64,000 nt of DNA from Alphaproteobacteria bacterium (GCA_017962565.1 JAGCVC010000001.1:79119-143118), one strand, 5' to 3'. Positions 513 to 44,720 are shown, numbered from the stretch's first letter. Notes: generated from the sequence alone by a model not told the origin. Numbers and translations are program-made.

Positions 513-731
513 ATGAAAGAAGCAAAAGAAGCAATTGATACAAAATTAGTAAATAAATTTTTCTGGAAAAACGGAAAAAAGAAAGAAACTGTTGCTCGCT
601 TTGGTGATAATTTTTCTTTTATTAAAGCAGAAAATTTTAAACCTCTTGGTGTAAGAAGCTTTTTAAAAGAACGAACTACACCCAAATTACCTTCTGAACT
701 ATTGAATAACGCAGGGCATCAGGGGATGTAA
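513..731 (+). CDS. small hypothetical protein (72 aa, basic)
   Basis: ATG at 513 is preceded by AAGGAG at 501-506. The product is K-rich with no recognisable domain. The upstream part of the 390..731 ORF overlaps rpmE and is probably not translated. Confidence 0.3.
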   Translation: MKEAKEAIDTKLVNKFFWKNGKKKETVARFGDNFSFIKAENFKPLGVRSFLKERTTPKLPSELLNNAGHQGM

Positions 732-798
732 GTTTCCCAAAACAAACAATTTTATAATTGCTTTCTAACACAAAAGATGTTAGTATCACCGACATTGT

Positions 799-874
799 TG
801 GGGCGTCGCCAAGTGGTAAGGCAGCGGATTCTGATTCCGCCATTTCGTTGGTTCGAATCCAGCCGCCCCAGCCA
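799..874 (+). tRNA. tRNA-Gln (anticodon CUG)
   Basis: A cloverleaf can be drawn: acceptor TGGGGCG/CGCCCCA, anticodon stem GCGGA/TCCGC with loop TTCTGAT (anticodon CTG), T-arm GTTGG-TTCGAAT-CCAGC, and an encoded 3' CCA. Confidence 0.85.
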
Positions 875-1010
875 AGTTGCATAAGTCGTCTAAAATGACG
901 ACTTTTTCTTTTATTTACAAGTAGTTGTATCAGTCCGTGTGCGAGTGCCTAAAAATATGAGATTTTTTACCTTACACGGACCAGCAATATCAAAAAGTCT
1001 TTGTTTTACA
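871..1010. repeat. copy A of a roughly 140-bp tRNA-3'-end-associated repeat (terminator-like hairpin AAGTCGTC-TAAAAT-GACGACTT plus a second inverted repeat GTCCGTGTG...CACACGGAC)
   Basis: It begins within the last bases of tRNA-Gln (CCAGCCAAGTTG). It is about 80% identical to copy C at 3194-3335, and its first 45 nt recur at 1755-1800. Confidence 0.6.
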
Positions 1011-1104
1011 ATAATGTTGTTCCGGGATTTGTCAAATTTATCCCGGAGTTTGACAATTAAAGAATCTTTGATAAAATGTAAAAAAATAAACAAAGGAGAT
1101 TAAA

Positions 1105-1734
1105 ATGATAAAAATCACTCGCAAAACAAAAACAATACTTTTAATTATGGAAATACTCTTTTTTCCATTTCTTATTTCACTTTATTTGTTTCCAAGTTTA
1201 GCGACAGAACGTTTTTGTTTTTACATGGTTCCAAATCCAGATGCCCCGATGATGAACGATGAGCTTTGGACTTGTGGATATTCACCTGCGATGTCTCTTA
1301 TTTTTGAGCCACTCTTTTTTGGGCTATTTACTTTGATTGCTTTTCTATCAACAATTATTTGGACTTTTGTTAAAAAAAAGCCAAAGTATATCATTTTTGT
1401 TCAATTTTCATGGCTTTTCTTCCCGTTTGTATGTTTATTAACGTTAAATGGTATTTTATATCAGCTTTTTCCATACGAAGGAATGTATATTGAAAGCAAT
1501 TATAACTTTTTTATTCCTGTGTTGTGGTTAATGTTATTCTCATTACTTTGGTTGATGCCTATTTTAATATCGTTTATTAGATACAAAAGAAGAAAAATTA
1601 ACAAAGAAAATTTGCAGAACAACATTTATAAATGGCTTAAATGGAGTATTTACCTGTATATAATATATGCTGTTACATTTGTAGCTTTGGCAATATTTAG
1701 TCCATTATTCAGACTTTATTTTCAGATGTTATAG
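1105..1734 (+). CDS. hypothetical polytopic membrane protein (209 aa)
   Basis: AAAGGAG RBS. Several hydrophobic helices, rich in F, L and W. No recognisable catalytic motif. Confidence 0.55.
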   Translation: MIKITRKTKTILLIMEILFFPFLISLYLFPSLATERFCFYMVPNPDAPMMNDELWTCGYSPAMSLIFEPLFFGLFTLIAFLSTIIWTFVKKKPKYIIFVQFSWLFFPFVCLLTLNGILYQLFPYEGMYIESNYNFFIPVLWLMLFSLLWLMPILISFIRYKRRKINKENLQNNIYKWLKWSIYLYIIYAVTFVALAIFSPLFRLYFQML

Positions 1735-1751
1735 TCCGTACTCTGCAAGAC

Positions 1752-1800
1752 AACTCCAGCCAAGTTGTGCAAGTCGTCTGAAAAGGCGACTTTTTTAATA
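1752..1800. repeat. copy B (truncated) of the tRNA-Gln-3'-end repeat
   Basis: CTCCAGCCAAGTTGTGCAAGTCGTCTGAAAAGGCGACTTTTTT contains the same CCAGCCAAGTTG core plus a hairpin and T-run. Confidence 0.5.
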
Positions 1801-1916
1801 GAAAAATCGATGGGGTTATTCTTAATTTAACCGGAAATATTATTCAATAATTTTTCTTGCAAATATTTTTTCCCGCTATAGACTAGAACTTAATGAAAAG
1901 TAGAAGGAAATCAAAA

Positions 1917-2258
1917 ATGTCAGATCAAAATAAAATCGTATTCAGTAAAATTCCCTATTACATAGTTTGTGTTTTGTTTGGGCTTGTTATTGGTCTGCCT
2001 TTTATATTGCCTCTTTTTTTCCCTTGGACCAAAGATTATGCAGGATGTGAACCATATTCACCTTATCCCAGTGTAAGAAGACTTCTAATACTTTCTCATT
2101 TAACATTAATATTAATTTTTATTTGTATGATTTTCTTTGCTTTGATTAGGAAAAAAGGCAAAGCATATTTTATTCATTATTTAAAGCTTTTATTGGGATC
2201 TTTGTTTTCCTTTATATTGCTCTGTTTAATCGGCTTGATTTGCGATTACTTGGCATAG
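1917..2258 (+). CDS. hypothetical small membrane protein (start ATG 1917 with GAAGGAA RBS preferred over 1893)
   Basis: Hydrophobic and predicted to span the membrane 3-4 times. No domain recognised. Confidence 0.5.
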   Translation: MSDQNKIVFSKIPYYIVCVLFGLVIGLPFILPLFFPWTKDYAGCEPYSPYPSVRRLLILSHLTLILIFICMIFFALIRKKGKAYFIHYLKLLLGSLFSFILLCLIGLICDYLA

Positions 2259-2282
2259 ATAAGGAAATGGTTTGTATCAAAC

Positions 2283-2304
2283 ACGCTGTGTCCAGCCAAT
2301 AAAA
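2283..2304. repeat. copy D (short) of the repeat core CACGCTGTGTCCAGCCAAT
   Basis: Shares CACGCTGTGTCCA(A/G)CCAA with the start of copy C at 3181. Confidence 0.35.
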
Positions 2305-2409
2305 AGCATTTTAAAATATTTGAAATTCATCTTGGCAAGTTTGTTTGACTTTTGATCATTTTTCATGTACAATACTTAGATGTGATTAATTAAAAAAAGG
2401 AAAATAAAA

Positions 2410-3024
2410 ATGACTGATGAAAGTAAAATAGAAGAATTGCCGTCTTTTTTTCAAAAGAAAATTAAAGAATTGGATAATTTTCGTGACGAAGATTTATTGT
2501 ACGGAAAAGAATGCACAAAGCGCATTTACATGGATGCTTATGCTGTCGCTAAATATTGTGTTACTTTAGATAAATTGGAAAATGAATTTATAAAAGAAAG
2601 CTCAAAAAAACAATATGAGCATGTCCCAGAATTGGATCCAAATCATTCAAATATAAGTTTTGCCATGGTTATTTCTTATGCAACACAGTATTTGGAAACA
2701 AAGGACTTGCCTCCATTTTTTCAAAGAAAAATCGAAGAAATAAACGGAAAGTCGGATGATGATTTCTTTTTTGGAAAAGATCTGACAAAAAAGCTTGTCA
2801 AAGATGCTTACGAATTTGTCAAAAACTGTGGTGATATGGCCGAATTAGAACGTTTCTTTGGACAAAAAGAAGAAGAACAATGTAAAGAAGCTTCTCAGAT
2901 TCTGAAGAATTCAGATCATTCAGGAGCAAGTTTAAGTATGGTTATAGGTTATGCAAAACAATATTTCGAAAGTGAAATAGTGGCAAGAAAAAAAGCTGCA
3001 GAGAGAATTAATGGCGGAAGATAA
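2410..3024 (+). CDS. hypothetical soluble protein with an internal two-fold duplication
   Basis: The two halves align: LPSFFQKKIKELDNFRDEDLLYGKECTKRIYMDAYAVAKYCV...NISFAMVISYATQYLE with LPPFFQRKIEEINGKSDDDFFFGKDLTKKLVKDAYEFVKNC...GASLSMVIGYAKQYFE. Confidence 0.55.
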   Translation: MTDESKIEELPSFFQKKIKELDNFRDEDLLYGKECTKRIYMDAYAVAKYCVTLDKLENEFIKESSKKQYEHVPELDPNHSNISFAMVISYATQYLETKDLPPFFQRKIEEINGKSDDDFFFGKDLTKKLVKDAYEFVKNCGDMAELERFFGQKEEEQCKEASQILKNSDHSGASLSMVIGYAKQYFESEIVARKKAAERINGGR

Positions 3025-3180
3025 GCGCTATTGCGTTAATTTAACAAGGCTTCATATTTAGAACAACAAGATGATAAAGCAAAACACAGAACAAGTAGTA
3101 TTTTCTTCGTAATTTTCTCCTTTTTTACACGCTATTTGACATTTTAATTTATTGCAACATGAAATTTATTTCGTATATTG

Positions 3181-3335
3181 CACGCTGTGTCCAACCAAGT
3201 TGTGTAAGCCGTTAAAAATGACGACTTTTTATTTTGTTAGCAAGTGGTTGTGTCAGTCCGTGTGCGAGCATTCAAAAATGTGCGATTTTTCGCCTTACAC
3301 GAACCAGCATTGTCAAAATATCCTTGTTTTTAACT
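3181..3335. repeat. copy C (full length) of the tRNA-Gln-3'-end-associated repeat
   Basis: CACGCTGTGTCCAACCAAGTTGTGTAAGCCGTT...GACGACTTTTT...GTCAGTCCGTGTGCGAG...CCTTACACGAACCAGCA aligns with 871-1010. Confidence 0.6.
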
Positions 3336-3404
3336 TTTTATTTAACGGAATATAAATTAAAGCATGCATTCTACTTTTCTGCTGAATAATTAGCCGTAGA
3401 AATT

Positions 3405-3434
3405 AAAAGAACCGTCCATTTGGACGGTTCTTTT
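3405..3434. terminator. bidirectional intrinsic terminator (perfect 10-bp stem GAACCGTCCA-TTT-TGGACGGTTC flanked by an A-run and a T-run)
   Basis: Seen directly. It lies just downstream of the stop of the minus-strand gene 3450..3755. Confidence 0.7.
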
Positions 3435-3449
3435 ATCGATTGATAGGAC

Positions 3450-3755
3450 TTAGATACCTTTTGATCCTTTTTGAGCAGCTTTAATAATTTTTACCATTTC
3501 TTTTGCTTTTTTCTCTTCTTCTTTAGCAATATCTAAAGCCGTTTTACCTTTTTCTTTTTGAGCAGCTTTAATCGTTTTTATTATTTCTTTTGCCCTTTTT
3601 TGTCTTTCTTTTGCTCTTTCTTTAGCAACATCTAAAGCAGTTTTACCTTTTTCTTTTTGAGCAGCTTTAATAATTTTTACCATTTTTTTTGCTTTTTCTT
3701 CTTTTTCTTTAGCAACATCTAAAGCTGTTTTATCTTTAACGTTTTTTGTTCCCAT
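3450..3755 (-). CDS. small protein made of three tandem 33-aa repeats (GKTALD[VI]AKE...KIIKAAQKEK), possibly a degenerate ankyrin-like repeat
   Basis: Three near-identical 33-residue units are visible in the translation, and the same repeat is visible at nucleotide level. G-x-TAL-x-A resembles the G-TPLH-A ankyrin core, and ankyrin repeats are also 33 aa long. Confidence 0.5.
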   Translation of the reverse strand: MGTKNVKDKTALDVAKEKEEKAKKMVKIIKAAQKEKGKTALDVAKERAKERQKRAKEIIKTIKAAQKEKGKTALDIAKEEEKKAKEMVKIIKAAQKGSKGI

Positions 3756-3946
3756 TTTCTCATCCTTTCATTTTATAACTTAATGGTTGATCGGTTTTTT
3801 TATTAGTTCTCAAAACCACAATATCTTATTATATCATTATTATAAAAATTTTTCAAGAAAAAAGCGGTTGTTTAATATTTCAACTTTTTACAATATAAAA
3901 AACTTTCTTAATCCGCATTCTGTATATTGTGTCCGGCCAACAAAAT

Positions 3947-5458
3947 TCAATCCATATACAACTGGGTCAAATTCATTTGCTTTCTTAAAAGTTCATGAAT
4001 ACTGAAGTTTGTTTTTTTGTAGGCTACTTTCGGATATTTATCCCCACCCTTAGCAATATAAGACGATGTTAAAACGGTATATTCTTTATCTAAATCCAAT
4101 GCATTACCTTTAATTGTAATATTCTTAATTTCCTTATCTTCGGGGGAAAAGTCATAATCAATCCCCGATGTTTGCAACAAGGCATTTGTTTTCATATCAG
4201 TCTTGTAATCAGCAATACCATGTTCTATAAATTCTTTTATTTGTTTTCCTGTTAATTGAACTAAAACAGCTTCATCATCAAACGGCAGAACATCCACCAG
4301 ATTTTGATAAAAAATCTTCCCTGCCGGTAAACCTTTTCTGATAGATCCGGAATTTAACAAAACACCATCGATGGACGGATAAGCCGAATGTAACATGTGT
4401 GTAAGATATTTTCCGATTGGGCAGTCTTTATCACAGTAATTTTTTCCGGGAGTAAAGTTAAAAGAATTTTCTAAAATAGCAATTGGCTCCGTCAAAACGG
4501 GATCTAATTGATCCTCTGCTTTTTCAATCAACTCTAATCCACGGGGATTGTTTGGAATTTTTTTGCTCATAGGAACGGTATTTCCTTGATATTTAATAAC
4601 ATGTCCTTTTGCATCAAAGGTTACCTGTAATCGCCCGACATATTGTCCCCCCATTCCCGATGTCACAATTAAAGTCTTTCCCCGATTTATCTCAACAGGA
4701 TACGGGCCGTCAGCCAGTGTTCCAAGATCATTGTTAAGCAACGAATGGGAATGTCCGCCGACAATGACATCTATTTCCGGGCATTCTTTTGCCAATTTTT
4801 TATCCGCATCCAATCCGATGTGAGATAAAACAATAATAATACTTATGCCCTGCTCTTTTAGAAAATCAATTTCTTTTGAAACAGCCTCAAAAACGGGTGT
4901 AACAGATATATTAGGATTGTTCAATATGTCTGTTTGGGGTGTTAATACACCGATAACGCCGATCTTATGCCCTTCTTTTTCTAAAATAATGGAAGGCCTG
5001 ACTAAAGGAAACAGCTCTTCTGTTTCAGATATTTTTAAATTCGCGACAACAACAGGCACAGACCATTTTTGAAAGAAAGATATTGTTTCCGATAAATTAT
5101 CATCAAATTCGTGATTACCCAAAGTAACTGCATCGTAAGGCATTTCCTCAAACAAAGGGAGTAAATATTTACTCTTTGTCAGCGTATAAAAGAAAGTGCC
5201 GGTAAAACGATCCCCCGCATCCAAAATAAGACTGTTCGATGACCTTTCTTGTTGTAAAAAAGTAATTATACGCGCAAACCCGCCCAAGCAATCTGAATCC
5301 GGTGCACAATCGTGTGTATTGTCAAATGGAAGTAAATGAGAGTGCAAATCATTTGTGTGAACTAAATTTAATGTAAAATCATTTGCCCCGTCAGCTTTAA
5401 AATTACTGCAACTACATAAGCAACAGGTAAAAAGAATAAAAAATAATTTTCTAATCAT
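3947..5458 (-). CDS. 5'-nucleotidase / UDP-sugar hydrolase family metallophosphoesterase, lipoprotein
   Basis: N-terminal signal with a Cys-rich lipobox region (FTCCLCSCSNF). Calcineurin-like phosphoesterase motifs are present (LHTNDLHSH, GDRF, GNHEFD), followed by a C-terminal 5'-nucleotidase-type domain. Confidence 0.8.
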   Translation of the reverse strand: MIRKLFFILFTCCLCSCSNFKADGANDFTLNLVHTNDLHSHLLPFDNTHDCAPDSDCLGGFARIITFLQQERSSNSLILDAGDRFTGTFFYTLTKSKYLLPLFEEMPYDAVTLGNHEFDDNLSETISFFQKWSVPVVVANLKISETEELFPLVRPSIILEKEGHKIGVIGVLTPQTDILNNPNISVTPVFEAVSKEIDFLKEQGISIIIVLSHIGLDADKKLAKECPEIDVIVGGHSHSLLNNDLGTLADGPYPVEINRGKTLIVTSGMGGQYVGRLQVTFDAKGHVIKYQGNTVPMSKKIPNNPRGLELIEKAEDQLDPVLTEPIAILENSFNFTPGKNYCDKDCPIGKYLTHMLHSAYPSIDGVLLNSGSIRKGLPAGKIFYQNLVDVLPFDDEAVLVQLTGKQIKEFIEHGIADYKTDMKTNALLQTSGIDYDFSPEDKEIKNITIKGNALDLDKEYTVLTSSYIAKGGDKYPKVAYKKTNFSIHELLRKQMNLTQLYMD

Positions 5459-28200: not shown

Positions 28201-31164
28201 GCCACCCAAACTGGAATAAGCGCCTTTAAAACTGTTCAAAATCTTTTTTGTACCACTTGTTTCTGTCGTCATATTTAACGCACGTATATAAACGGAACCA
28301 TCATTTGTTCCACCGGCGGCCCTCATATTACCGCTACCACCATTATGCGTCAAAATAATTTTTCCTTGGTTGATGGCAGATCCCCCTTCACCTCCGGAAC
28401 CAGTGAAACCTTTAAGGTCTGAGTTGTACCCGGAGGAAGTAAGATAGATAAAGCCATCTTCACCATTAGTTTTTTTACCAGCAGATTTCATACCGTCTAA
28501 TTCTAATCCATCTGAAGACGAACGAATATCTATAATACCATTGTTCGTTTGCTCTATGTCTGCTCCACCTTTTGTATTTAAAGCACTATATGATGAACCT
28601 TTCTTATAAAATCCGCTTATTACAGTTGTAATAGCACCATTATTTTCAATAGTTGCTCCTTCACCCGACATAACAATAACAGATGAAGAAAGCATAGCTC
28701 CCAATGCATTAGAACTATGCATATACATGGTGACATCATTGTTACTTTCCGCCGAACCTTTTGCACCATCAATCACGTTCAAAATACCACCGTTTGAAAC
28801 ATCTATCGGATCGGCCGCAGAACCCAACATAATTTTTCCTTCATTTTTCAAGGTGGATTTTCCTGCGCCGGAACCGATGATGTAAACATGTTTAGCAACA
28901 TCAATACTATTCATCAATTCACCACTGACTATAATGGTTCCGTTATTAATTGCGGTTGTTCCATTTTCTGTCGATGCATCCGGTGTTGTATAAAGCACAG
29001 AAACGTTGTAAAGCAGATTTGTTAAATCCAACTTAATTATACCACTTGTATCGTTAACAACATACCCACCAGCAGTAGCCTCCATCACTCTTAATTCAGA
29101 TGCGCCCAAAGTGCCACCGACTTCATCGGGGAAAAGCGTACTACCGGCAACACCCGCAGAAACAGTACCTTTATTAGATACGACCTTTCCGGTTATACCC
29201 CGTGCAATATTTCTATCCAAAGTGAATGGATAAGCCGAAACATCAACGTCTTCATCAGAATTACCCAAAATGATATTAACGCTGGCAGTTGCATTGTTAA
29301 TTACATTTCGATCTGGTGCATAAATACCCCATACATTTAATGCTTCACCAAAAGCTCTGATATTAACTTCACCATCATTTATTACGTTAGCGCCTTTATT
29401 TGGTACATTCGGGCTGATACGACTGGCATCCATTGCAATAGACACATTTGCTGATTTAGCTGTCACGTTAATTATACCAGAGTTTGTAAATTCAGCTGCA
29501 GAGGATGCTTTCATACCAATCACGCCTTTGTTGGTCTTCGAACTTTCTATTGCATTTATCGTACCTCCAACTATCGTTATAGTCTTATTGCCATCTTCAT
29601 CTTCGCTTTCTATCGCACTACCTTCATTTCTTGCTTTTGAGGCATGAGCTAATTTAACTGTACCACCGCTTTCGGTCAAAGCTCCCTCACCGACACCGTT
29701 TGCCCATAAACCAACAGCAATTCTGCTGTCATTTCCAACAACGTTTATGATGCCATCTTCTCCATTTTTAGTTTCCAAACCCTCGGTTGCAATTTGACTG
29801 ACTGTATAGTTTTTGTCATTCCACGTCACATCACCGCTTCCGATTATCAGATTATTATCAACATCTACAAAGGCAATTTCATTTGCTCCATCTGTAAACG
29901 GTAAAGTATAAACACCGTTGACAACCTTATCACCATAAACACGTTTATCATCAGCCTCTTGTTGAGTAACATCTTCTACAACGAAATCTGATGCAACATC
30001 ACAATCTTTCTTTTTGCTGTTTGATGAAGAAAATCCGTCTTCGCAAATACAAAAACCGGTTGCAATGTTACAAGAACCATGTTTACCACATCTGGCATCA
30101 TAGCACAAATCTTTAATATCACAGTGGTCACCGGTATAACCTGGGTTACAAGTACAAACCGGTTTTACCGGATCGTCTTCCGAAAGTTCACATTGTCCAT
30201 TGGAGCCGCAATCCACATTATCGCAGACAAAGGCATCGCAACTATCCCCGCTGTAACCTCTATTACAAGTACATGCCATTCTTCTTTCCGAACCTTCACC
30301 GGTGTATTCGCAAGTTCCGTTACCATTACAGTTTTTATCGCAAGCTTGAGCAACAGAACAATCATCCCCTTCAAATCCCGGATAGCAAGTACAAGTTTTT
30401 GTTACCCTATCGCAACTACCTTGTCCGCTACAATTGTTCGGACAGGTTTTTTCTCTGGAACAATCTTCTCCTTCATAATCGTCATCACATGTACATGTAG
30501 CTGTTTCTTCATCGCACGTACCATGTCCGCTACAATCATTTGGGCAAGTTTGCTTTATGGAACAATCCGAACCTTCCCAACCCTTTGTACAAACACAAAT
30601 CTCTCTTTCTTCGTCATAAGTTCCGTGTCCGCTACAATCTTCTTTCTTGCTGCCGCCACCACCACCGCCGCCACCGGCTGCAATAGCTGCAACGCCACCG
30701 ACAACTGCGACACCACCGATTGTTGCCATACCGGCAGGGGTTGTCCAGAAACTTTCACCGGATTTTTTACGCCCTGCGGCACGAGAATTTCTACGTGTAT
30801 TTGCTGCCGTTGACTTTTCCGGACATACAGAACTGCCAACTGCGCCTGATTGAGAACAAAGTGCTTTCTTTTGTTCGGGAGATATGTTGTCCATACAGCT
30901 GTGGTTGGCATTGGCACCGGCCTTAATCAACGCATTGTAAGCTTTCACATTTTTTGACGCAACAGCTGAACACAAAACAGTTTTGCCGCTTCCGTCAACA
31001 ACATCGATGTCATGTCCGGCGTCCCTTAACTTTTGCAATCCTTGGACATCACCGCGTTGAGCATATTGGTAGACAGCCTGTCTGAGTGGTATAGCCGCTT
31101 TTGCTGTTCCCGAAATTCCCAAAACCAACGCAGCAAGAATTAATATCAATTTTTTGCGCAACAT
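25252..31164 (-). CDS. giant classical (type Va) autotransporter: signal peptide, 2 ankyrin repeats, Gly-rich segment, about 6 EGF/tenascin-like Cys repeats, long beta-helix-like passenger, S/G/D-rich 12-aa tandem repeats, and a C-terminal 12-strand beta-barrel ending in ...KWNF
   Basis: Signal MLRKKLILILAALVLGISGTAKA. ANK repeats G.T.L..A. EGF-like motifs CSGHGTC..C.C..G.G..C. The C-terminal ~280 aa have alternating hydrophobic beta-strands and a terminal aromatic Phe, typical of the autotransporter beta-domain. Confidence 0.8.
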   Translation of the reverse strand: MLRKKLILILAALVLGISGTAKAAIPLRQAVYQYAQRGDVQGLQKLRDAGHDIDVVDGSGKTVLCSAVASKNVKAYNALIKAGANANHSCMDNISPEQKKALCSQSGAVGSSVCPEKSTAANTRRNSRAAGRKKSGESFWTTPAGMATIGGVAVVGGVAAIAAGGGGGGGGSKKEDCSGHGTYDEEREICVCTKGWEGSDCSIKQTCPNDCSGHGTCDEETATCTCDDDYEGEDCSREKTCPNNCSGQGSCDRVTKTCTCYPGFEGDDCSVAQACDKNCNGNGTCEYTGEGSERRMACTCNRGYSGDSCDAFVCDNVDCGSNGQCELSEDDPVKPVCTCNPGYTGDHCDIKDLCYDARCGKHGSCNIATGFCICEDGFSSSNSKKKDCDVASDFVVEDVTQQEADDKRVYGDKVVNGVYTLPFTDGANEIAFVDVDNNLIIGSGDVTWNDKNYTVSQIATEGLETKNGEDGIINVVGNDSRIAVGLWANGVGEGALTESGGTVKLAHASKARNEGSAIESEDEDGNKTITIVGGTINAIESSKTNKGVIGMKASSAAEFTNSGIINVTAKSANVSIAMDASRISPNVPNKGANVINDGEVNIRAFGEALNVWGIYAPDRNVINNATASVNIILGNSDEDVDVSAYPFTLDRNIARGITGKVVSNKGTVSAGVAGSTLFPDEVGGTLGASELRVMEATAGGYVVNDTSGIIKLDLTNLLYNVSVLYTTPDASTENGTTAINNGTIIVSGELMNSIDVAKHVYIIGSGAGKSTLKNEGKIMLGSAADPIDVSNGGILNVIDGAKGSAESNNDVTMYMHSSNALGAMLSSSVIVMSGEGATIENNGAITTVISGFYKKGSSYSALNTKGGADIEQTNNGIIDIRSSSDGLELDGMKSAGKKTNGEDGFIYLTSSGYNSDLKGFTGSGGEGGSAINQGKIILTHNGGSGNMRAAGGTNDGSVYIRALNMTTETSGTKKILNSFKGAYSSLGGGESGATSGTGTIDIELTGSSRGYATGASYIGDENSETLLNSVNILANNLTNTSDATLILTGVSSERLYEKEQQGSLTYTNNLFISVAGQENNATYVNGMTGIDQSISNDGVIKIDVDLGKSKKHQIIGMRTQDNRYGMSIPTSWVEEPDSLISALGHVPLGNYMGVNYDGGYGHNEFKAVNNNTIQISVYGGSRNDLKDDDQITYREGIDDRYPFVIEYPESFLYDEEISPIGYTKNLSADSNVILKPLSIKNYSTGVLETFYPDVIGMATNSVAINNGTIDITISGNSDARAVGMLAYEGGFIQNSASGVIRFSGKTENFIPFYAYGTRVTLLDDKENKPHDFEINYATFSNKGTIEINGIEESHSATLGGSTKTTNPAYNPNNPGSYDPDDPNTWNPSGPGEVQTDDVGFYEADSWAREVYKWEKGSINGEEAWIMKYDEENSTVDSSTVPILDYYNVTNSGSASGGSSGDSSGSDSGDSSGDSSGGDSGDTSGDTGGSDSGDTSGDTGGSDSGDSSGDSGIPSGTSISSLSSVASSSDLSENVASIPSLMISQNIKFISEDGGSFSANGYHLLGEVMAGASIVQKGNEDVYVADGKGSGAFVGDGDYSDMSVISSTPLFDASYALNENNSNGIDIVMTRKPFEEVVDNSNLAQFLESNYVAGNNEEFFNKLKSFETVSSLLQGLDDLTGKQMLTRFNFEDITMMREMNFDMNEKLFHDKKQQFALSGSVSPMAFKGDTGSSSKYGLYNRHIGNFSVGLGVAFTNIYSDNSHDSDNRRDNAYQLIAPIGYKTHGFNLVSSARMGYARGNYTRTGFENKSYKGTLEKRLFGLTNEARYPLSVGEWTVEPAAEFNVLGYTQRGSEDEREFSLNVKSQSTYSVEAGIGLYLTKEEQLSKDSNLKLNVGVAAYHEFADPYKVDVEMNGMRGHFTLRDEDRSDNRGVIRSGFDYKTGPYTFYGSMTSYIDHELRANAKTGFKWNF
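26640..26830. repeat. 36-bp coding tandem repeat (about 5 copies, TATCGCCTGAATCACTTCCGCCAGTATCTCCCGAGG) encoding SGD(T/S)SGD(T/S)GGSD units in the autotransporter passenger
   Basis: Exact copies start at 26649, 26685 and 26721 (period 36), then degenerate copies. It is in-frame inside 25252..31164. Confidence 0.65.
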
Positions 31165-31439
31165 GAAAAACTCCCATTAAATAAAGAAGGTATGTCTAAT
31201 CAGACCGTATTCTTTTCTTGCCGCAGTTGCGAAAGTACCGGCAAAAATTGAACGCGTCAAAATTAAACATATCCCTTCGAACACTATATTCTCCCACAAT
31301 AATACCGTTTTGTGCATACAAATCAGAAAATCGAATCGCACGATGCACATTTTCACTCAATCTATTCAAGCACAACATAAAAAGCTTAAAAAAGTATTAA
31401 AAAAATGCAAAAAAAATGAAAAAAAACAAAAAAAGGGGG

Positions 31440-31475
31440 TTGACATCGGATTCAAAAAGGATTCTAATGGGGGCA
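31440..31475 (+). promoter_or_regulatory. putative sigma70-type promoter for the OmpA-like/TAA operon (TTGACA -17- TCTAAT)
   Basis: TTGACATCGGATTCAAAAAGGATTCTAAT lies about 30 nt upstream of AAGGGGG (RBS) and the GTG at 31502. Confidence 0.35.
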
Positions 31476-31501
31476 TGTCTAACAAAACCAAGGGGGTTAT
31501 T

Positions 31502-32221
31502 GTGAAAAAACTACTGTTAATAGGGACAATCTTAGTTGCTGTCGGCTGTGGCTGTGCACCACGCCGCGATGAGATCTGTCCGTCAAGCACATTAGCAATG
31601 TGCGAACCCGCCATCTATTTTGAGTATGATTCAGCCAAGATAGATGACAAGAACGCAGTCACGATTGACTGGATTGCACAAAAATTAAACACATACCCGG
31701 ACAGAACGGTCACATTGGCCGGCTATACGGATTTGAATGGTCGTGAAAATTACAATCTTTCGCTGTCGGGCAGACGCGCTGCGGCAATTCAGGAAGCTTT
31801 AATTTTACGCGGCGTTGATCCAAATCAAATCATCGTTGAAGCAAAAGGCATGACGGATCCCTTGGCAACAGAGGAAGACAAACAAAACTTGAACCGTCGT
31901 GTTGATGTTACTTTCGGGCATAAACAAAGAAGTTTAGCTGATGCATGCAAAGAAACTTGGGATGAACTATTCTGTTCAAAAGAAGCAGTCAAAGAAGAAG
32001 CCGACAAAGCACAACAAGATGCTTCTGCAACGGCCGAGGAAGTAAAAGAAGAAGCTAAAGCAACAGTCGCGGAAGTCAAAAAAGACGCAAACGATGCAAA
32101 AGCGGACATCAAAAACGATGTAAAAGAAATTAAAAAAGACGTCAAAGAAGATGTCAAAAATGTAAAAGAAGACGTTAAAAATGACGTCAATGATATTCAA
32201 CCAAACAAGGAAGGAAAATAA
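31502..32221 (+). CDS. OmpA/Pal-family peptidoglycan-associated lipoprotein with a K/E/D-rich repetitive C-terminal tail
   Basis: GTG at 31502 follows AAGGGGG with a 5-nt spacer; the upstream ATG at 31310 has no RBS and would precede the promoter. Signal/lipobox LLIGTILVAVGCGC. OmpA C-domain motifs are present (YFEYDSAKI...TVTLAGYTDLNG...NLSLSGRRAAA...RRVDV). Confidence 0.65.
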   Translation: MKKLLLIGTILVAVGCGCAPRRDEICPSSTLAMCEPAIYFEYDSAKIDDKNAVTIDWIAQKLNTYPDRTVTLAGYTDLNGRENYNLSLSGRRAAAIQEALILRGVDPNQIIVEAKGMTDPLATEEDKQNLNRRVDVTFGHKQRSLADACKETWDELFCSKEAVKEEADKAQQDASATAEEVKEEAKATVAEVKKDANDAKADIKNDVKEIKKDVKEDVKNVKEDVKNDVNDIQPNKEGK

Positions 32222-32223
32222 TT

Positions 32224-35200
32224 ATGAACTTAAAATTATCAAGAACAGCATTACGTGAGTTGACCAGACTATATCGTGGTGTATTATTTGCGGCGATCAT
32301 TTCAGCCGCATTTGTCGCATCCGGCGCAAGAGCTGAAGTAACAGAAGTTTCCACATGGGATGCTTTGAAAACAGGATTAACAGCTGGCTCAGATATGAAA
32401 ATGACTGGCAATATTACCATCTCGGAAGGTCTTGGAATTACCGATAAGGATAATACTGTTGACATGGATGGTAAAACTTTATCTGGAGATGCAGGCAACA
32501 CAAATGGATTTTCTATTTTTGGAGGATCTTTAGACCTTAAAAATGGAGGCACTATTTCCGACATTAACAGAAATGGTTCGACAGCTGGTGTTTTCAATGT
32601 ACAAGGGGGAGATCTTTCCTTGACAGGTGGTGATTTTACTTTCAAAAATAATACATCTACAAGAGGTGTTATCCAAGTTTGGGAAAGTGCCAATCCTTCT
32701 GAAGCTACTTTAACAACTGACGTAAATTCATTAGTGTTTAATAACAACAGTTCAACAATGGGTGGTGCTATTTATCATGAACAAAGGTATTCTGATTCTG
32801 ACGTTGTTTCTGAATTAAAAGGAAGTACTATTAAATTCGAAAATAATAAAGCTACTGCAGGTAACGGTGGTGCTATTTTGAACGTAGTTGGGGATATTTC
32901 AGTTCTCGGTGATACAAACGAGTTTTTGGGAAACAGCGCAAAGAACGCTTCAACAGACACTGTTGATAAACATTACAAACGTGGTGGTGGTGCAATTGCC
33001 AATGCTTCAGGTGAAAGCTTATATGATGCTACAATGATTGTTGGTAAAGCAACCAGCGTTAATAAATTTGAAGGAAATACTTCAATAACAAACGGCGGTG
33101 CAATTATGAACCGTGCTGTTGATGCCGATAAAAATGTAGATTTAACCATTAACGGTACATCAACATTTACTGGTAATACTGCAAAAGAAAAAGGTGGTGC
33201 GATTTACAATATTCAACAAGCTGGTCGTACTGCAACATTAACAATCAATGGTGCAGCAACATTCTCTGGTAACACAGCCAATGGCGAAGCCAATGATATT
33301 TACAATGATGCCGGTACAGTTAATTTGAATGCCGCTGCTGGTAAAGAAATCAGCTTGGCAGGTGGTATTGATGGTGCCGCAGGTACACTCAATGTCAATG
33401 GCTCCGGTACAACCGGTACAGTCAGTGTTGCAAATGCTTTGAAAAACCAAACTGTAAGTGTTACAGCCGGTGAATTGGCGTTATCAGATGTCAATTTGAC
33501 AGGTTCAACAGTCGGTGTCGCTTCCGGTGCAACACTCAATACAATTGATGGTAAGATCAATAATTATGAAGGAATTACTTTGGCTGCAGGCGCTAACTTG
33601 AAAGCCGATGTCGGTTTGGCAGGTAGCGGCTCACATGATGCTTTCACAGCCGCCGGTGCTTTCAATTTGACGGGTTTAAGCATTACTTCCGATGCAGAAT
33701 CTGAAACAACCGAATTAACATTGTCAGATCAAGCTGTTACAGTTGCCGCTGGTTTAAGCACTTATACAAGTAAACAAAAATACACCGTAGCAAACAGCGA
33801 AACAACCGGTAACATTAAACTTACCGGTTTGGGCGATGGCACAGGTGGTTTGGGTGCCGCATCCGCTGATACTTCTTCCCCAAACGTTACTCATACAATG
33901 ACGGATGACGAAGGATTTGGCGGCGGAACTGTTGCTGCAACCAACTTCGAATTAAATGGTAACAATAAATCCGTTGATCTTGATGGTGATTTGAATGTTG
34001 CTTCCGGTAAGACCTTCACAGCACAAAATGTCACATTCGAAGGTAGTAACGATATTTTGAACGCTGGTACAATGATCATCAAAGATTCAAATATCGATGT
34101 TGACCTTACAAACAACGGTGTTTTGATTTCTGACCCGACAACATATTCTGGTACAGTTACCAACAACACGACTGCTTCATTTACTGATGATACATTTACA
34201 TCAACAGCAACGTTGGCCAACAATGGTACAGCAAGCTTAACAGATACAACGTTTGAAACCGGTTCAAACATTAACGGTACCGGTACTTTGCAGTCCGTTG
34301 GCGGGACAAACGTTATCGGTGCTACTGTTACAGGTCAAGCTATCGACATCCAAGGCGGATCAACTTTACAATTGATTGAAGGTAGTAACATTGATGGTGC
34401 TGCTGTTACAACAAGTGCCGGTGGTGGTACGTTGGATTTGCGTAACGACCGTCTTGATACTTTAGGTTCAACAACATTGGGTTCAAACTTAAGTGTTAAG
34501 ATGGATGCTAACTTGAGCACAGGCGCAACAGATGCTTTCGGATCATTTACCTCTAATGGTAACACAGTTACTGTTGATGCTTTGGAATTGTTAGCATTAG
34601 GTAGTGATCAAACACTTACATTGGCCACTGGTGCTGATGCAGGTGCAGTGACATTGTCAACTGATGCTATTACAACATTACAAACTTACTACGGCACAGT
34701 TACCGACAACGGTGATGGTACAGTAACATTGAGCGGAAAGAAAACAACTGCTGATGCTGATTTGGTTGGTACATGGGGTACAGGCGATGTCATCAAAGCT
34801 TACGATGCAAGTGACAAAGCCAACACTTCCGTTGGTGCTAACTTGATGGCTTTGGATGCTCAAAAGGTAAATAAGTCAGATGTTTATACAAGTGTAATTG
34901 ACGATACTGCAGTTTCAAATGCTGATGAAAAAGTTGTTTCCGTTAAATCATTCCAAGATTCTATCCAAAACTTAATGGATAATGTATCAATCGAATGGCA
35001 ACAACAACAACAATTCGCTGATGGAATTGCTATTGGTACCGGTGGTACTGCTGTACAAATAAGTCAAAATACAGACGGTACTTTGAACGTCAATAAAGAC
35101 ATCATGATCAATGGTAACAAAGCTTTGACGACAGCAAGTGCTTTGGATGGTGCTAACTTGACAAACGGAACAGTTGCAAAAGCAGCTTTAGCTTCCGGTG

Positions 35201-38181
35201 TCCAAAGTTCTTTGGATAAAGCAGATTCAGCTATCCAAACGGTTAAAGTTAATGGCACAGCGTTGACAGTAACTTCAAATGCAGTTGACATCTTAATTGC
35301 AGAAGGTGCTACAAATGGTACAATCAAAGTGAATAATGTTGATGTTGCTGTTCATGGTTTAGGTTCAGCTGCTTACGCAGATGCTTTGACTGGAACAATT
35401 GCTGCAAACACAACATCAAATGATTTGGTATCTGCCGCACAAGTTGTTGGTTATGCACAAGCACAATTGAAGAACGATGAAACTACACCGGCTGATATCA
35501 GCTCAACCGTTTTGACAACAGTACGTGCATCGGGTTCTGCTTCAGATACAGCTTTGGTAACAGAAAAAGCTGTTGCAACTGCAGTAGAAGGTGCAACATC
35601 TGATATTCTTGATGGTACATCAGTTTTCACCGGTTTTACGATGACAAACAATGCCTCAACACCGGCTAATGTAACAATTACCAAGATTGATGATGGTAAC
35701 CACACTGACTCTACAACCACAACATTGGCTACAACTGCTACAGTGACAAAGGCTGTCACCAATTTGAAAGCCGCTAATAATACATGGACTGGTACAAACA
35801 CGTTCAATTACAGTGACGATGCTGCTGGTGCTGGCGTAACGGGCTTCTCCGTAACAGCAACAGATACTGATGCTGGAAACTCCGGAGCAAACGCTTCCAC
35901 AACGTCTTTGACCGTCAACTCCAAAACCGGTGTGACAATTACCGGTGATTTAACAGCAAACGGTAATGTCACTTTGGGTGATGCCGCAGCTGATGTGATT
36001 ACGGTCAACGGAACAGCAACATTTGGTCAACAAATCAATGCTACGAACGGAATTAAAGCCGGAACAAACACAACATTGGTTGATGGCACATTGACAGTTG
36101 GCGATGGATCAACATCCAGCACATTGACACATAATGCTTTGTCAACAGCAACCGTTAATGCTACGACAGTTAATGCCGGAACAAATGGAACAGCTTTAGC
36201 TGACAATTCATTAACATTGCATGATGGAACATATTCAACGGTATTGAGTGCTGTTCAAAAAGGAACAACTACATCCAGTTTGTTGAATGTCAGCACAGGT
36301 ATGAACGTCAATGGTGATACAACAGTTGCCGGAACATTGGGTGTAACAGGCAATACAACAGTTGGTGGTACATTGACTGTCGGTGGTGCAAATGCAATTA
36401 CCGGCACAGCTGCTTCCGGATCAACTCCTGCCACATTGGATATGAACAAAAATGCTTTAACGAATGTACAAGGTTTGACATTAACTGATGGTGCTACTAC
36501 AGCAAAGACAGCTTCTTTGACTGTTGATACAACCAGTGGTGACTTGAGTGTTAATAAGACTATTGATGCAACTCAAGGTGTCAAGTTCGGCGATGGTACA
36601 ACATTGGATAGCGTAGCAATGACTTCTGCTGATCACGGTACTGCGGATATTAAAGCTGATGCAACTGGTCAAGGTGCTGTTGTAGCTAGTGTACAAACAG
36701 TTGCTGCAACACGTGACGCAATTAATGACGACGTTACAACCGTTTTAGGTGGTATCTATAAAGTTGCGGGTACTGGTGCTGTTGTTACTTATGACAATAC
36801 AGCTCTTACAGGTGCAACCGCAACAACGCCGAACCTCGGTAAAGGTTTTGCTGATGGACAAACAAACTTGTCAGCGGCTTTACAAAATTACGCTGGTAAC
36901 GTTGCTGCTGCAACTGGTTTGACATACAACGCTGCGGGAGCAAACACAACGACATATGTAGTAAAGACTGCAACAGATGCAGCCAATTATGCTGACTTCG
37001 CAGCTGGCACATCTTTGAAAGCTGCTGTTGATCAAACCAGCAAGAATATCGGTCTTGGAATGACATCCGTAACGGCACGTTCTGTAACAGGTGGTACAAC
37101 AGCTGCAACACAAACGGTCAACCAAAACTTGTCTGCTTTGGATGCTACAATCGGTGGCGATATGACATCCGTAACAACACGTTCTGTAGCGGGTGGTACA
37201 ACAGCCGTGACACAAACAGTCAATGCTAACTTGTCTGCTTTGGATGCCGCAATTGGTGCTGATATGGCGGTCATTGGCGATACAGGTACAGGTATTGCAA
37301 ACAGAGCAACTGCTGCTTTCCAAACAAAGAAAGCAAATACGATTAACCAAAACTTGTCTGCTTTGGATGCTGCTATCGGTGTTGATATGACAGCAATTGG
37401 AACTGGCCGTACAACAACAGCTTTCCAAACAGCTGCCGGAAACAGCGTCAATGCCAACTTAACAGCTTTGGATGCTACAATCGGTGCTGATGTGACAACA
37501 ATTGCTTCTACAACAGTAAAAACAGGTGCTGGAGACAACAACGGCGTTGTTGCAACAAACACAGTTAACCAAAACTTGTCAGCTTTGAATGCTGCTGTCG
37601 GTGACATTGCTACATTAAGTGCTGGTACAGGTGCAACCGGTGACGCAATCACCAATGGAACAGGCACCGCTGCCACAACGGTTGTTCAAGCTTTGAACAA
37701 CATCGATGCAACAATGGGTAACATCCATGGCTTGTATGATGGCTCAACAGTTAACAGTTCTGTTATAGCATCAACAGTCAATGGACATTCTAACTTGGCT
37801 GTCGGAACAACAGTTGAAGATCATTTGGTCAGCATTGATAATGCCATCGGCGATCGTAATCAATTTGATCAATCTCACTACATGCAAGCTATTGATTCTG
37901 TTGCAGATGCTATGATGAGCGTTGACCACAATTTGTATCGTGTCGAAAAAGAAATGCGCGGTGGTTTTGCTTCAATGGCTGCTATGTCCGCTTTGGTACC
38001 AAACGCACGTGCCGCAGGCGATACTCAAATTTCAGTGGGTGTCGGTGCTTATCGTGATCACCAAGGTATGGCTCTCGGTGCATTCCATTACTTCAACGAC
38101 AACATCTTGGCCAACGTTGGTGCTTCCTATGGTGGCGACAAGAGTACGGTATTCCGTGCTGGTGTTACATTCGGTTGGTAA
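32224..38181 (+). CDS. giant trimeric-autotransporter-type (type Vc, YadA-like anchor) adhesin with N-terminal Pmp-like (GGAI / FxxN) repeat region and Thr/Ala-rich stalk with 35-aa repeats
   Basis: ATG lies 2 nt after the ompA-like stop, with GGAAGGAAAA RBS. Long signal MNLKLSRTALRELTRLYRGVLFAAIISAAFVASGARA. Repeated F.(N/G)N....GGAI(Y/L/M)N motifs. The C-terminal ~75 aa (GGFASMAAMSAL...ISVGVGAYRDHQGMALGAFHYFNDNILANVGASYGGD...FRAGVTFGW) match the 4-strand YadA-type membrane anchor ending in W. Confidence 0.8.
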   Translation: MNLKLSRTALRELTRLYRGVLFAAIISAAFVASGARAEVTEVSTWDALKTGLTAGSDMKMTGNITISEGLGITDKDNTVDMDGKTLSGDAGNTNGFSIFGGSLDLKNGGTISDINRNGSTAGVFNVQGGDLSLTGGDFTFKNNTSTRGVIQVWESANPSEATLTTDVNSLVFNNNSSTMGGAIYHEQRYSDSDVVSELKGSTIKFENNKATAGNGGAILNVVGDISVLGDTNEFLGNSAKNASTDTVDKHYKRGGGAIANASGESLYDATMIVGKATSVNKFEGNTSITNGGAIMNRAVDADKNVDLTINGTSTFTGNTAKEKGGAIYNIQQAGRTATLTINGAATFSGNTANGEANDIYNDAGTVNLNAAAGKEISLAGGIDGAAGTLNVNGSGTTGTVSVANALKNQTVSVTAGELALSDVNLTGSTVGVASGATLNTIDGKINNYEGITLAAGANLKADVGLAGSGSHDAFTAAGAFNLTGLSITSDAESETTELTLSDQAVTVAAGLSTYTSKQKYTVANSETTGNIKLTGLGDGTGGLGAASADTSSPNVTHTMTDDEGFGGGTVAATNFELNGNNKSVDLDGDLNVASGKTFTAQNVTFEGSNDILNAGTMIIKDSNIDVDLTNNGVLISDPTTYSGTVTNNTTASFTDDTFTSTATLANNGTASLTDTTFETGSNINGTGTLQSVGGTNVIGATVTGQAIDIQGGSTLQLIEGSNIDGAAVTTSAGGGTLDLRNDRLDTLGSTTLGSNLSVKMDANLSTGATDAFGSFTSNGNTVTVDALELLALGSDQTLTLATGADAGAVTLSTDAITTLQTYYGTVTDNGDGTVTLSGKKTTADADLVGTWGTGDVIKAYDASDKANTSVGANLMALDAQKVNKSDVYTSVIDDTAVSNADEKVVSVKSFQDSIQNLMDNVSIEWQQQQQFADGIAIGTGGTAVQISQNTDGTLNVNKDIMINGNKALTTASALDGANLTNGTVAKAALASGVQSSLDKADSAIQTVKVNGTALTVTSNAVDILIAEGATNGTIKVNNVDVAVHGLGSAAYADALTGTIAANTTSNDLVSAAQVVGYAQAQLKNDETTPADISSTVLTTVRASGSASDTALVTEKAVATAVEGATSDILDGTSVFTGFTMTNNASTPANVTITKIDDGNHTDSTTTTLATTATVTKAVTNLKAANNTWTGTNTFNYSDDAAGAGVTGFSVTATDTDAGNSGANASTTSLTVNSKTGVTITGDLTANGNVTLGDAAADVITVNGTATFGQQINATNGIKAGTNTTLVDGTLTVGDGSTSSTLTHNALSTATVNATTVNAGTNGTALADNSLTLHDGTYSTVLSAVQKGTTTSSLLNVSTGMNVNGDTTVAGTLGVTGNTTVGGTLTVGGANAITGTAASGSTPATLDMNKNALTNVQGLTLTDGATTAKTASLTVDTTSGDLSVNKTIDATQGVKFGDGTTLDSVAMTSADHGTADIKADATGQGAVVASVQTVAATRDAINDDVTTVLGGIYKVAGTGAVVTYDNTALTGATATTPNLGKGFADGQTNLSAALQNYAGNVAAATGLTYNAAGANTTTYVVKTATDAANYADFAAGTSLKAAVDQTSKNIGLGMTSVTARSVTGGTTAATQTVNQNLSALDATIGGDMTSVTTRSVAGGTTAVTQTVNANLSALDAAIGADMAVIGDTGTGIANRATAAFQTKKANTINQNLSALDAAIGVDMTAIGTGRTTTAFQTAAGNSVNANLTALDATIGADVTTIASTTVKTGAGDNNGVVATNTVNQNLSALNAAVGDIATLSAGTGATGDAITNGTGTAATTVVQALNNIDATMGNIHGLYDGSTVNSSVIASTVNGHSNLAVGTTVEDHLVSIDNAIGDRNQFDQSHYMQAIDSVADAMMSVDHNLYRVEKEMRGGFASMAAMSALVPNARAAGDTQISVGVGAYRDHQGMALGAFHYFNDNILANVGASYGGDKSTVFRAGVTFGW
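37060..37640. repeat. coding tandem repeats of about 105 nt (35 aa) in the adhesin stalk, each carrying N-Q-N-L-S-A-L-D-A-x-I-G
   Basis: Near-identical units start at 37060 and 37161. Further degenerate copies carry AACTTGTCTGCTTTGGATGC at about 37225, 37341, 37450 and 37572. Confidence 0.55.
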
Positions 38182-44643: not shown

Positions 44644-44720
44644 TGGTGTCCTTGGCGGGAGTCGAACCCACGACCTTGGGATTAGGAATCCCACGCTCTA
44701 TCCTGCTGAGCTACAAGGAC
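44644..44720 (-). tRNA. tRNA-Arg (anticodon CCU)
   Basis: The reverse complement folds as GTCCTTG-TA-GCTC-AGCAGGAT-AGAGC-G-TGGGA-TTCCTAA-TCCCA-AGGTC-GTGGG-TTCGACT-CCCGC-CAAGGAC-A-CCA. The anticodon loop TTCCTAA gives CCT. Confidence 0.85.

Follow-up and report, generated by a model that had tools for sequence, protein, structure and literature searches.

How did four direct repeats of one complex sequence come to lie in a row behind a tRNA gene, with mutually unrelated genes set between them? Here we examined this question in a stretch of 64,000 nucleotides (nt) from an uncultured Alphaproteobacteria bacterium of the human gut (GCA_017962565.1, JAGCVC010000001.1:79119-143118), to whose whole length we refer as the window, and in which a tRNA-Gln gene is followed on its 3' side by four co-oriented copies of a junction unit (W1 to W4; 868-1048, 1733-1795, 2269-2304 and 3170-3358), the open reading frames (ORFs) ORF1, ORF2 and ORF3 each lying between successive copies. 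The reading that we favour, and that we hold at about even confidence, is that the array has grown by accretion of cassettes through site-specific recombination, with the recombinase supplied in trans from elsewhere. We favour a site-specific process because the arrays are anchored exclusively at tRNA-Gln, the units are strictly co-oriented and the right-hand ends of shared cassettes are precise to the core of the unit, and also because the unit has the size of an attP site, carries a repeated 8-mer and, in relatives, is accompanied by a mini-element bounded by a short copy of the tRNA 3' end.

The array in the window

The initial annotation of this locus as a tRNA-Gln gene followed by an array of direct repeats was confirmed by ARAGORN, Rfam and repeat comparison. 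The segment 868-1007 is 81% identical to 3191-3330 (140 nt, E 7e-27), 1756-1795 is 85% identical to 868-907 (40 nt, E 3e-6), and 2282-2299 matches 3181-3198 at 17/18 nt. All of the copies proposed initially exist, but the internal ones extend further to the left than had been thought, as given above. Similarly, the coordinates and ribosome-binding sites (RBSs) of ORF1-3 are as described before, but the description of one ORF between each pair of copies requires amendment, since a decayed gene shares the module of ORF3. The guanine plus cytosine (GC) content of the array is about 29-33%, compared with 36.6% for the window, and the remaining ~60 kb of the 64-kb window hold no copy of the unit. 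Upstream lie rpmE, an ORF of 72 amino acids (aa) and then the tRNA-Gln gene, after which the order is W1, ORF1, W2, ORF2, W3, ORF3 with the decayed gene, W4 and, less certainly, a 101-aa gene and a weak junction. Six independent metagenome assemblies contain the identical array, which is therefore not an assembly artefact. The features (positions in the window, strand in brackets; HMM, hidden Markov model) are:

799-874 (+): tRNA-Gln with anticodon CTG, anchor of the array (ARAGORN; Rfam tRNA, 55.5 bits)
868-1048 (+): unit W1, tRNA-proximal, without left arm (repeat comparison, unit alignment)
1050-1077 (+): promoter-like site of ORF1 (TTGACA-16-TAAAAT, TG-extended)
1105-1734 (+): cassette gene ORF1, polytopic membrane protein of 209 aa, no family match
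1733-1795 (+): junction W2, truncated (junction HMM, E 4e-17)
1917-2258 (+): cassette gene ORF2, membrane protein of 113 aa, no family match
2269-2304 (+): junction W3, left arm and core only (junction HMM, E 3e-4)
2345-2373 (+): promoter-like site of ORF3 (TTGACT-17-TACAAT)
2410-3024 (+): cassette gene ORF3, soluble protein of 204 aa with two ~90-aa repeats, near-orphan
3036-3110 (-): decayed gene of 24 codons, lipoprotein-like N-terminus, start codon ACG
3111-3169 (-): conserved leftward RBS and promoter region (TTGCAA ... AAGGAGAAAATTA)
3170-3358 (+): unit W4, full internal copy (81% identical to W1; E 3e-54)
3450-3755 (-): possible last cassette gene, 101 aa, three 33-aa tandem repeats; array membership uncertain
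3912-3947 (+): possible degenerate terminal junction, a weak match (GTATATTGTGTCCGGCCAA; E 0.044 in 1 kb, 2.8 window-wide)

Anatomy of the junction unit

Alignment of 16 full copies, together with the junction HMM, showed the unit to span about 190 nt, as attP sites typically do. It consists of a left arm of ~28 nt (consensus TAGTCCGTGtATTaCcAGAC...), the core CCAGCCAA, a hypervariable heptamer, a first hairpin (hairpin 1) with its T-run, a conserved spacer, a 50-nt inverted repeat (IR2, formed by GTCCGTGT, about 33 nt and ACACGGAC), a tail (cCTTaTTTTaCAAT) and a third inverted repeat (IR3, yGGGAT, N10-12, ATCCCrg). The last 7 nt of the tRNA-Gln gene, CCAGCCA, are the left part of the core common to all junctions. 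Of the three copies of the 8-mer GTCCGTGT, one lies in the left arm and the other two form an inverted repeat in the right arm. Junctions that come after a minus-strand gene in the order of the array additionally begin with a conserved leftward RBS and promoter. The hairpin and second inverted repeat of the initial annotation are both present, although the arms of the latter are of 8 nt (GTCCGTGT/ACACGGAC) and not 9.

In the window, W1 comprises the core at 868-875, the heptamer GTTGCAT, the hairpin at 883-904 with its T-run, IR2 with GTCCGTGT at 933-940 and the inverted ACACGGAC at 974-981, the tail, and IR3 with CCGGGAT at 1022-1028 and ATCCCGG at 1040-1046. The left arm of W2 starts from the stop codon of ORF1 and is followed by the core (1756-1763), the heptamer GTTGTGC and the hairpin (1771-1792), IR2 and tail being absent. 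The core of W3 lies at 2292-2299. In W4 we find the left arm (3170-3190), the core CCAACCAA (3191-3198), the heptamer GTTGTGT, the hairpin (3206-3227), IR2 (3256-3263 and 3297-3304) and the tail.

Hairpin 1 with its T-run is predicted to be terminator-like, both at 883-904 and at 1771-1792, and three of its pairs show compensatory changes. The arms of IR2, on the other hand, are either invariant or carry uncompensated mismatches, covariation being confined to the terminator hairpin. Because the mismatches in these arms are uncompensated, the pattern of sequence change suggests that the three copies of GTCCGTGT are protein-binding sites and not parts of an RNA helix. We also considered GTCCGTGT as the site of a global regulator and rejected this, the two window copies outside units being close to the number expected by chance.

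These data bear directly on the alternative of a structured RNA or a regulatory element of the repetitive extragenic palindromic (REP) kind, spread by local duplication and with no role in mobility. The three inverted repeats of the unit, the compensatory changes in its first hairpin and its intergenic placement, where elements of 3' or 5' untranslated regions would sit, are what such an element would show. Yet the unit matches no Rfam family, covariation is limited to the terminator hairpin as described, and the copies are never dispersed or inverted, while REP elements and the mosaics that they form (bacterial interspersed mosaic elements) are dispersed in both orientations. The genes between the copies are, moreover, mutually unrelated, and duplication of a module made up of gene plus unit is therefore excluded: ORF1 and ORF2, tried as diverged paralogues, gave a BLASTP E value of 0.4, and an all-against-all comparison of 30 cassette proteins revealed only the ORF1 family and one pair in array L007 as related. 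Added to this, the content of orthologous loci differs. This explanation, which had been offered initially as an alternative, is in our judgement the least probable of those considered here, with very little weight left to it.

Occurrence in relatives and association with tRNA-Gln

The unit is present in about 13 arrays of related gut Alphaproteobacteria. A census pattern drawn from the large inverted repeat matched four GTDB species genomes, each time beside tRNA-Gln or inside an array, all four being metagenome-assembled genomes of uncultured Alphaproteobacteria/Pseudomonadota from human gut or similar samples; the same approach matched four metagenome contigs. A fifth genome match (L018, an Aminicenantes genome with 63% GC) was discarded as a chance match to the pattern, with no HMM in support of it.

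The association with tRNA-Gln is exclusive. All 39 of the 39 junction HMM hits, distributed over 15 loci, are co-oriented with the tRNA, and every array whose start is on the contig (7/7) begins at an intact tRNA-Gln gene, with anticodon CTG in the window, L027 and L014 and with TTG in L007, L012/L020, L016 and L019. The chromosomal contexts are several (rpmE, SIS, alr and sua5). No units were found near the tRNA-Arg, tRNA-Lys and tRNA-Ser genes of the same loci, and tRNA-Arg(CCT) of the window (44644-44720, minus strand) has neither adjoining unit copies nor any cassette-like structure, so that the array is specific for tRNA-Gln. Thus the units are not a generic family scattered independently of tRNA genes. 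Homologues of the window's 5'-nucleotidase gene (P0008, P0011, P0012, P0013 and P0023), through which further orthologous loci were sought, lie where synteny is broken, with no tRNA-Gln nearby.

The modules of these arrays consist of one or two genes and measure 0.5-1.6 kb; the genes are intact, usually have their own promoter and occur in both orientations. Most encode orphans, membrane proteins or lipoproteins, alongside two GNAT acetyltransferases and one weak match to HD_4.

A GC-rich non-coding mini-element of ~150 nt (L007 1063-1262; L027 10184-10000, minus strand; L019 1121-1268 and 2090-2240) lies directly 3' of tRNA-Gln in three species, L019 having a second one at an internal junction. 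A terminator hairpin of its own stands at its start, while its last 18-20 nt are a copy of the acceptor 3' strand of the local tRNA and covary with that tRNA across the three species. RNAalifold predicts 43 pairs, 16 of them with compensatory changes, in an alignment of three sequences only. The mini-element matches no Rfam family and is not present in the window; in the capture system proposed below it may act as a helper, or it may be a passenger without coding function.

Exchange of cassettes between loci and strains

Comparison of loci demonstrates that cassettes turn over between species and between strains. At the orthologous rpmE-tRNA-Gln(CTG) locus of L027, whose 5'-nucleotidase is 61% identical to that of the window, the three modules of the window are absent, and genes for a 183-aa membrane protein, an 83-aa protein and a 116-aa protein take the place of ORF1-3 between units of the same kind. 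Between L014 and L016, identity is 95% for an HD-like cassette but 74% for the ORF1 cassette next to it, and the place of the ORF1 cassette varies from first (window, L012 and L016) to third (L007). As judged from these sequence comparisons, neighbouring cassettes have independent histories. On the right-hand side, homology of the ORF1 cassette stops directly behind CCAGCCAA, and does so in three different contexts. Finally, L012 and L020 are 98.9% identical across 3.2 kb of flank, and L020 contains an extra cassette, with a gene for a 172-aa protein, whose flanking repeats are identical at 58/58 positions and start exactly at CCAGCCAA. In this pair the homology ends in the tail TTTTACAATA, and the gene replaced is a very divergent member of the ORF1 family.

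Several of these observations would also be expected if the array were a platform for RecA-dependent recombination, a possibility that we regard as real but clearly not the leading one. Under this explanation the units would be conserved terminator and promoter linkers acting as portable homology, with no dedicated recombinase, and cassettes would change by Campbell-type insertion, by deletion between direct repeats or by allelic replacement after uptake of DNA. The L020 insertion, flanked by identical repeats of at least 58 nt, agrees with it, and homology that ends in the tail together with the swap of divergent ORF1-family genes between L012 and L020 is typical of allelic replacement between conserved flanks. 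Terminators and promoters that appear to be working would, in addition, account for conservation of the unit without recombination, and no recombinase gene was found in either the arrays or the window. What RecA-dependent exchange leaves unexplained is that arrays start only at tRNA-Gln, at two isoacceptor loci and in several chromosomal contexts, and that the same left arm and triplet of GTCCGTGT accompany unrelated cassettes. Nor does it explain the precise location of right-hand breakpoints at a core whose 8 nt are too few for RecA exchange. In addition, units of one array are usually just 75-85% identical to each other, which makes them a poor substrate for RecA.

Site-specific accretion, which we continue to prefer, has itself to face a number of observations that weigh against it. 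The first concerns the tRNA. The initial annotation considered the repeats to be derived from the tRNA's own 3' end, and this holds for the 8-nt core; the overlap of the unit with the tRNA is, however, CCAGCCA+A only (868-875, ~8 nt, CCAGCCAA), and the 28 conserved nt that precede the internal cores are not tRNA-derived, their fit to the tRNA 3' half as a degenerate T-arm and acceptor being no better than that of shuffled sequence (mean z 0.12). Because the overlap is so short and the left arm is not tRNA-like, the repeats are mostly of the region downstream of the tRNA. The second concerns the breakpoints. Left-hand breakpoints of shared cassettes lie inside IR2, ~75 nt to the right of the core, where a single crossover point predicts the core itself; there is thus no single fixed position, as RecA-dependent exchange would have it, and the pattern leaves a 75-nt linker (heptamer, hairpin, spacer and left IR2 arm) with a history of its own. 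The identity of the L020 flanking units over the 58 nt available suits homologous recombination or local duplication equally well, and the mean Hamming distance between heptamers was 3.82 within arrays against 4.30 in permutations (p = 0.08), which is a trend only. The array is identical across the six contigs, all of one species, and turnover must therefore be slow. Lastly, we found no gene for an integrase or other recombinase among the ORFs of the 64-kb window, in line with the initial annotation, nor any recombinase gene in any array locus, including the array ORFs scanned, and blastn searches of phage and plasmid collections yielded no free, phage-borne or plasmid-borne unit. Three pattern scans and one protein scan of viral contigs, aimed at the unit and at ORF1, were all empty. 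An Xer-like gene is present in L027 beside priA, ~3.7 kb upstream of the tRNA and on the side opposite the array.

The lack of such genes in the arrays bears also on a further explanation, according to which the modules are the decay products of integrase-carrying islands or prophages inserted serially at tRNA-Gln and since deleted almost entirely. Serial integration into tRNA genes that leaves partial-tRNA repeats and degenerate remnants has been documented for tycheposon islands (10.1101/2020.12.28.424599), and the window does contain a decayed gene (3036-3110) and the truncated units W2 and W3. Nevertheless, neither integrase fragments nor genes of phages or of conjugation occur in about 13 arrays with ~30 junctions, the modules, uniformly of 0.5-1.6 kb, have intact genes and promoters of their own, and what bounds unrelated cargo across species is an elaborate unit rather than a mere tRNA fragment, with internal left arms that did not come from the tRNA. 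Remnants of larger elements, as had been suggested initially, are accordingly improbable, since the same complex unit is retained at all junctions and none of the arrays showed an integrase fragment. The suggestion made with it, of a cassette-like array mobilised in trans, fits the comparative data, although RecA would explain most of them and the site-specific character of the exchange is something that we infer.

If accretion by site-specific recombination is correct, the cassettes would be circular molecules, each carrying one unit, and a recombinase whose gene lies at another place in the genome or on a transient element would insert them at the tRNA-proximal core or at internal cores, from which they might be excised again. 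Older cassettes would be pushed distally and then decay. The unit is laid out like an attP site, with a left arm, a core, the heptamer, a hairpin that would also end transcription, and a right arm. In terms of this model we propose that the window holds three intact cassettes and one decayed gene.

Comparison with known systems

Placing the locus among described systems requires considering four kinds of arrays. In tandem accretion at tRNA genes (Prochlorococcus tycheposons, streptococcal cis-mobilizable and integrative conjugative elements (CIME/ICE) and Dehalococcoides ssrA islands), as here, the array starts at the 3' end of the tRNA, co-oriented attachment-site repeats separate the inserts, the content differs between strains and species, and newer inserts are apparently nearest the tRNA with degenerate remnants distal to them. 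Of the traits of such arrays, an intact tRNA at the start is present in 7/7 arrays and presence/absence differences with breakpoints at the core are seen (L012 against L020 and the right ends of the ORF1 cassette), the left ends being less sharp. As to direct repeats of the tRNA 3' segment around each insert, what the co-oriented repeats have in common with the tRNA is the 8-nt core only, their left arms not being tRNA-like; the mini-element of relatives does contain an 18-20-nt copy of the tRNA. The differences are that the inserts here are single genes of 0.5-1.6 kb instead of several to tens of kb, that the inserts of ~13 arrays have no integrase, excisionase or replication gene, and that the repeat is a ~190-nt composite, with 8 nt of tRNA, the same unit bounding all cargo across species.

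Integrons and the clusters of attC sites that lack an integrase (CALINs; PMC4889954) resemble the locus in their one-gene cassettes, mostly without function by annotation and including GNATs, in structured site-like repeats of 60-200 nt and in an array content that is hypervariable among relatives, CALINs likewise having no adjacent recombinase. Here, however, there is no intI or attI and the anchor is a tRNA gene. A regular-expression search of 781-4000 on both strands for attC pairs (RYYYAAC...GTTRRRY) returned 0 hits, and the heptamer does not conform to GTTRRRY. Integron cassettes are mostly promoterless and co-oriented, whereas the genes studied here lie in both orientations, with their own promoters and a terminator in the junction.

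The rAID-1 arrays of Bacteroidales are defined by a 5' XerD-like recombinase gene and co-directional genes homologous to immunity genes of type VI secretion systems, and their intergenic repeats have been described as 'reminiscent of integrons' (10.1101/471110). They share with our locus the human-gut host, a low GC content, small accessory genes and repetitive intergenic sequences, but our arrays have no recombinase at the 5' end, genes pointing both ways and a tRNA anchor. ORF1-3 match no immunity family in Pfam, NCBIfam, PADLOC or PHROG, though a remote relationship may exist. The pdif modules of Acinetobacter plasmids (PMC6449649) are small and hold one or two genes each, and a housekeeping recombinase, XerC/D, presumably moves them in trans. 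Like ours, they have no recombinase of their own and are bounded by short recombination sites; these are, however, 28-bp XerC/XerD sites of alternating orientation, as opposed to 39/39 co-oriented units of ~190 nt, and plasmid-borne, as opposed to chromosomal and anchored at a tRNA. No dif-like 11-6-11 palindrome was apparent in the unit alignment, as judged by eye.

The locus consequently behaves like accretion arrays, integrons and CALINs, rAID-1 and pdif modules while being a member of none of them, because it has no attC, no intI or XerD gene at its head, promoter-bearing genes in both orientations, co-oriented sites, no integrase in the inserts and only 8 nt in common with the tRNA. We tentatively suggest, with a confidence that stays well short of even, that it belongs to an undescribed system of cassette capture in uncultured gut Alphaproteobacteria, integron-like in its working though of different construction, in which the 3' end of tRNA-Gln would be the insertion site, the ~190-nt unit with its terminator and outward promoters the cassette site, and the recombinase would act in trans. 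Should a dedicated recombinase build the arrays, cassette capture would have evolved an architecture other than, and independent of, that of integrons, here in a little-studied human-gut lineage, and its compact, defined recombination site (~190 nt) with a universal chromosomal anchor would be useful for understanding the flux of accessory genes and possibly as a genetic tool. Were RecA the driving force, the locus would offer a clear natural example of portable linkers organising a hypervariable locus. Either way, the cassette genes form a pool of functions that vary from strain to strain and go entirely unnoticed in existing annotation.

Genes carried by the array

This pool is made up mostly of membrane proteins, lipoproteins and small orphans, and for ORF1 and ORF3, the two for which homologues were searched, all database homologues with readable context sit in arrays of the unit. 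Hydropathy analysis gave ~5 hydrophobic segments for ORF1, three for ORF2 (121 aa if started at the ATG at 1893) and none for ORF3, which bears out the earlier description of the first two products as polytopic membrane proteins. Searches with ORF1-3 and with the 101-aa protein returned nothing above noise in Pfam, NCBIfam, PHROGs and PADLOC.

ORF1 has just four homologues among 5.8 billion protein clusters, and its promoter-like site is conserved 5' of the homologues in L007, L012 and L016. In L012 (10001-10613) a homopolymer change from T7 to T8 splits the homologue; this could reflect a pseudogene, phase variation or an assembly error. For ORF3, 1.8 billion representatives yielded a single clear relative and a second, weak one. 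The protein contains a ~90-aa domain in duplicate, seen in the DNA as the repeats D2 and D4 (73-75% identical), and its clear relative, P0126, is a single-domain protein of 119 aa with 49% identity, encoded in array L034 beside a GNAT gene.

The decayed gene (3036-3110, minus strand) lies between ORF3 and W4. Its start codon has changed from ATG to ACG, and its N-terminus (TKKILLVLCFALSSCCSK...) has a lipoprotein-like signal. The leftward RBS and promoter region that precedes it (3111-3169) is common to unrelated minus-strand cassette genes in L007 and L027.

Distal to W4, the 101-aa protein (3450-3755, minus strand) is built of three tandem repeats of 33 aa (99 nt) with the pattern KGKTALDVAKE...KIIKAAQKE. 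Its gene may be a further cassette, because it lies between W4 and the weak junction-like sequence at 3912-3947, which looks like a left arm with core and directly adjoins the stop codon of the conserved 5'-nucleotidase gene.

Genomic surroundings

The 72-aa ORF between rpmE and tRNA-Gln (513-731, plus strand) is basic and has its own RBS; it matches no family and is not found at the same place in the relative L027. On the source contig, ~7-10 kb upstream of the start of the window (L001, 1-2871), there are type IV secretion genes (VirB8, CagX and a giant protein with a TrbI domain); housekeeping genes separate them from the tRNA, and no link to the array has been established.

Further downstream in the window, two giant divergent genes flank an OmpA-family gene (31310-32221, plus strand). 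One (25252-31164, minus strand) encodes a 1970-aa protein with teneurin-type EGF repeats, and the other (32224-38181, plus strand) a 1985-aa, autotransporter-like protein with a YadA anchor and PMP repeats. The arrays of relatives also border genes for very large Cys-rich repeat proteins (852 aa in L023 and 1646 aa in L024).

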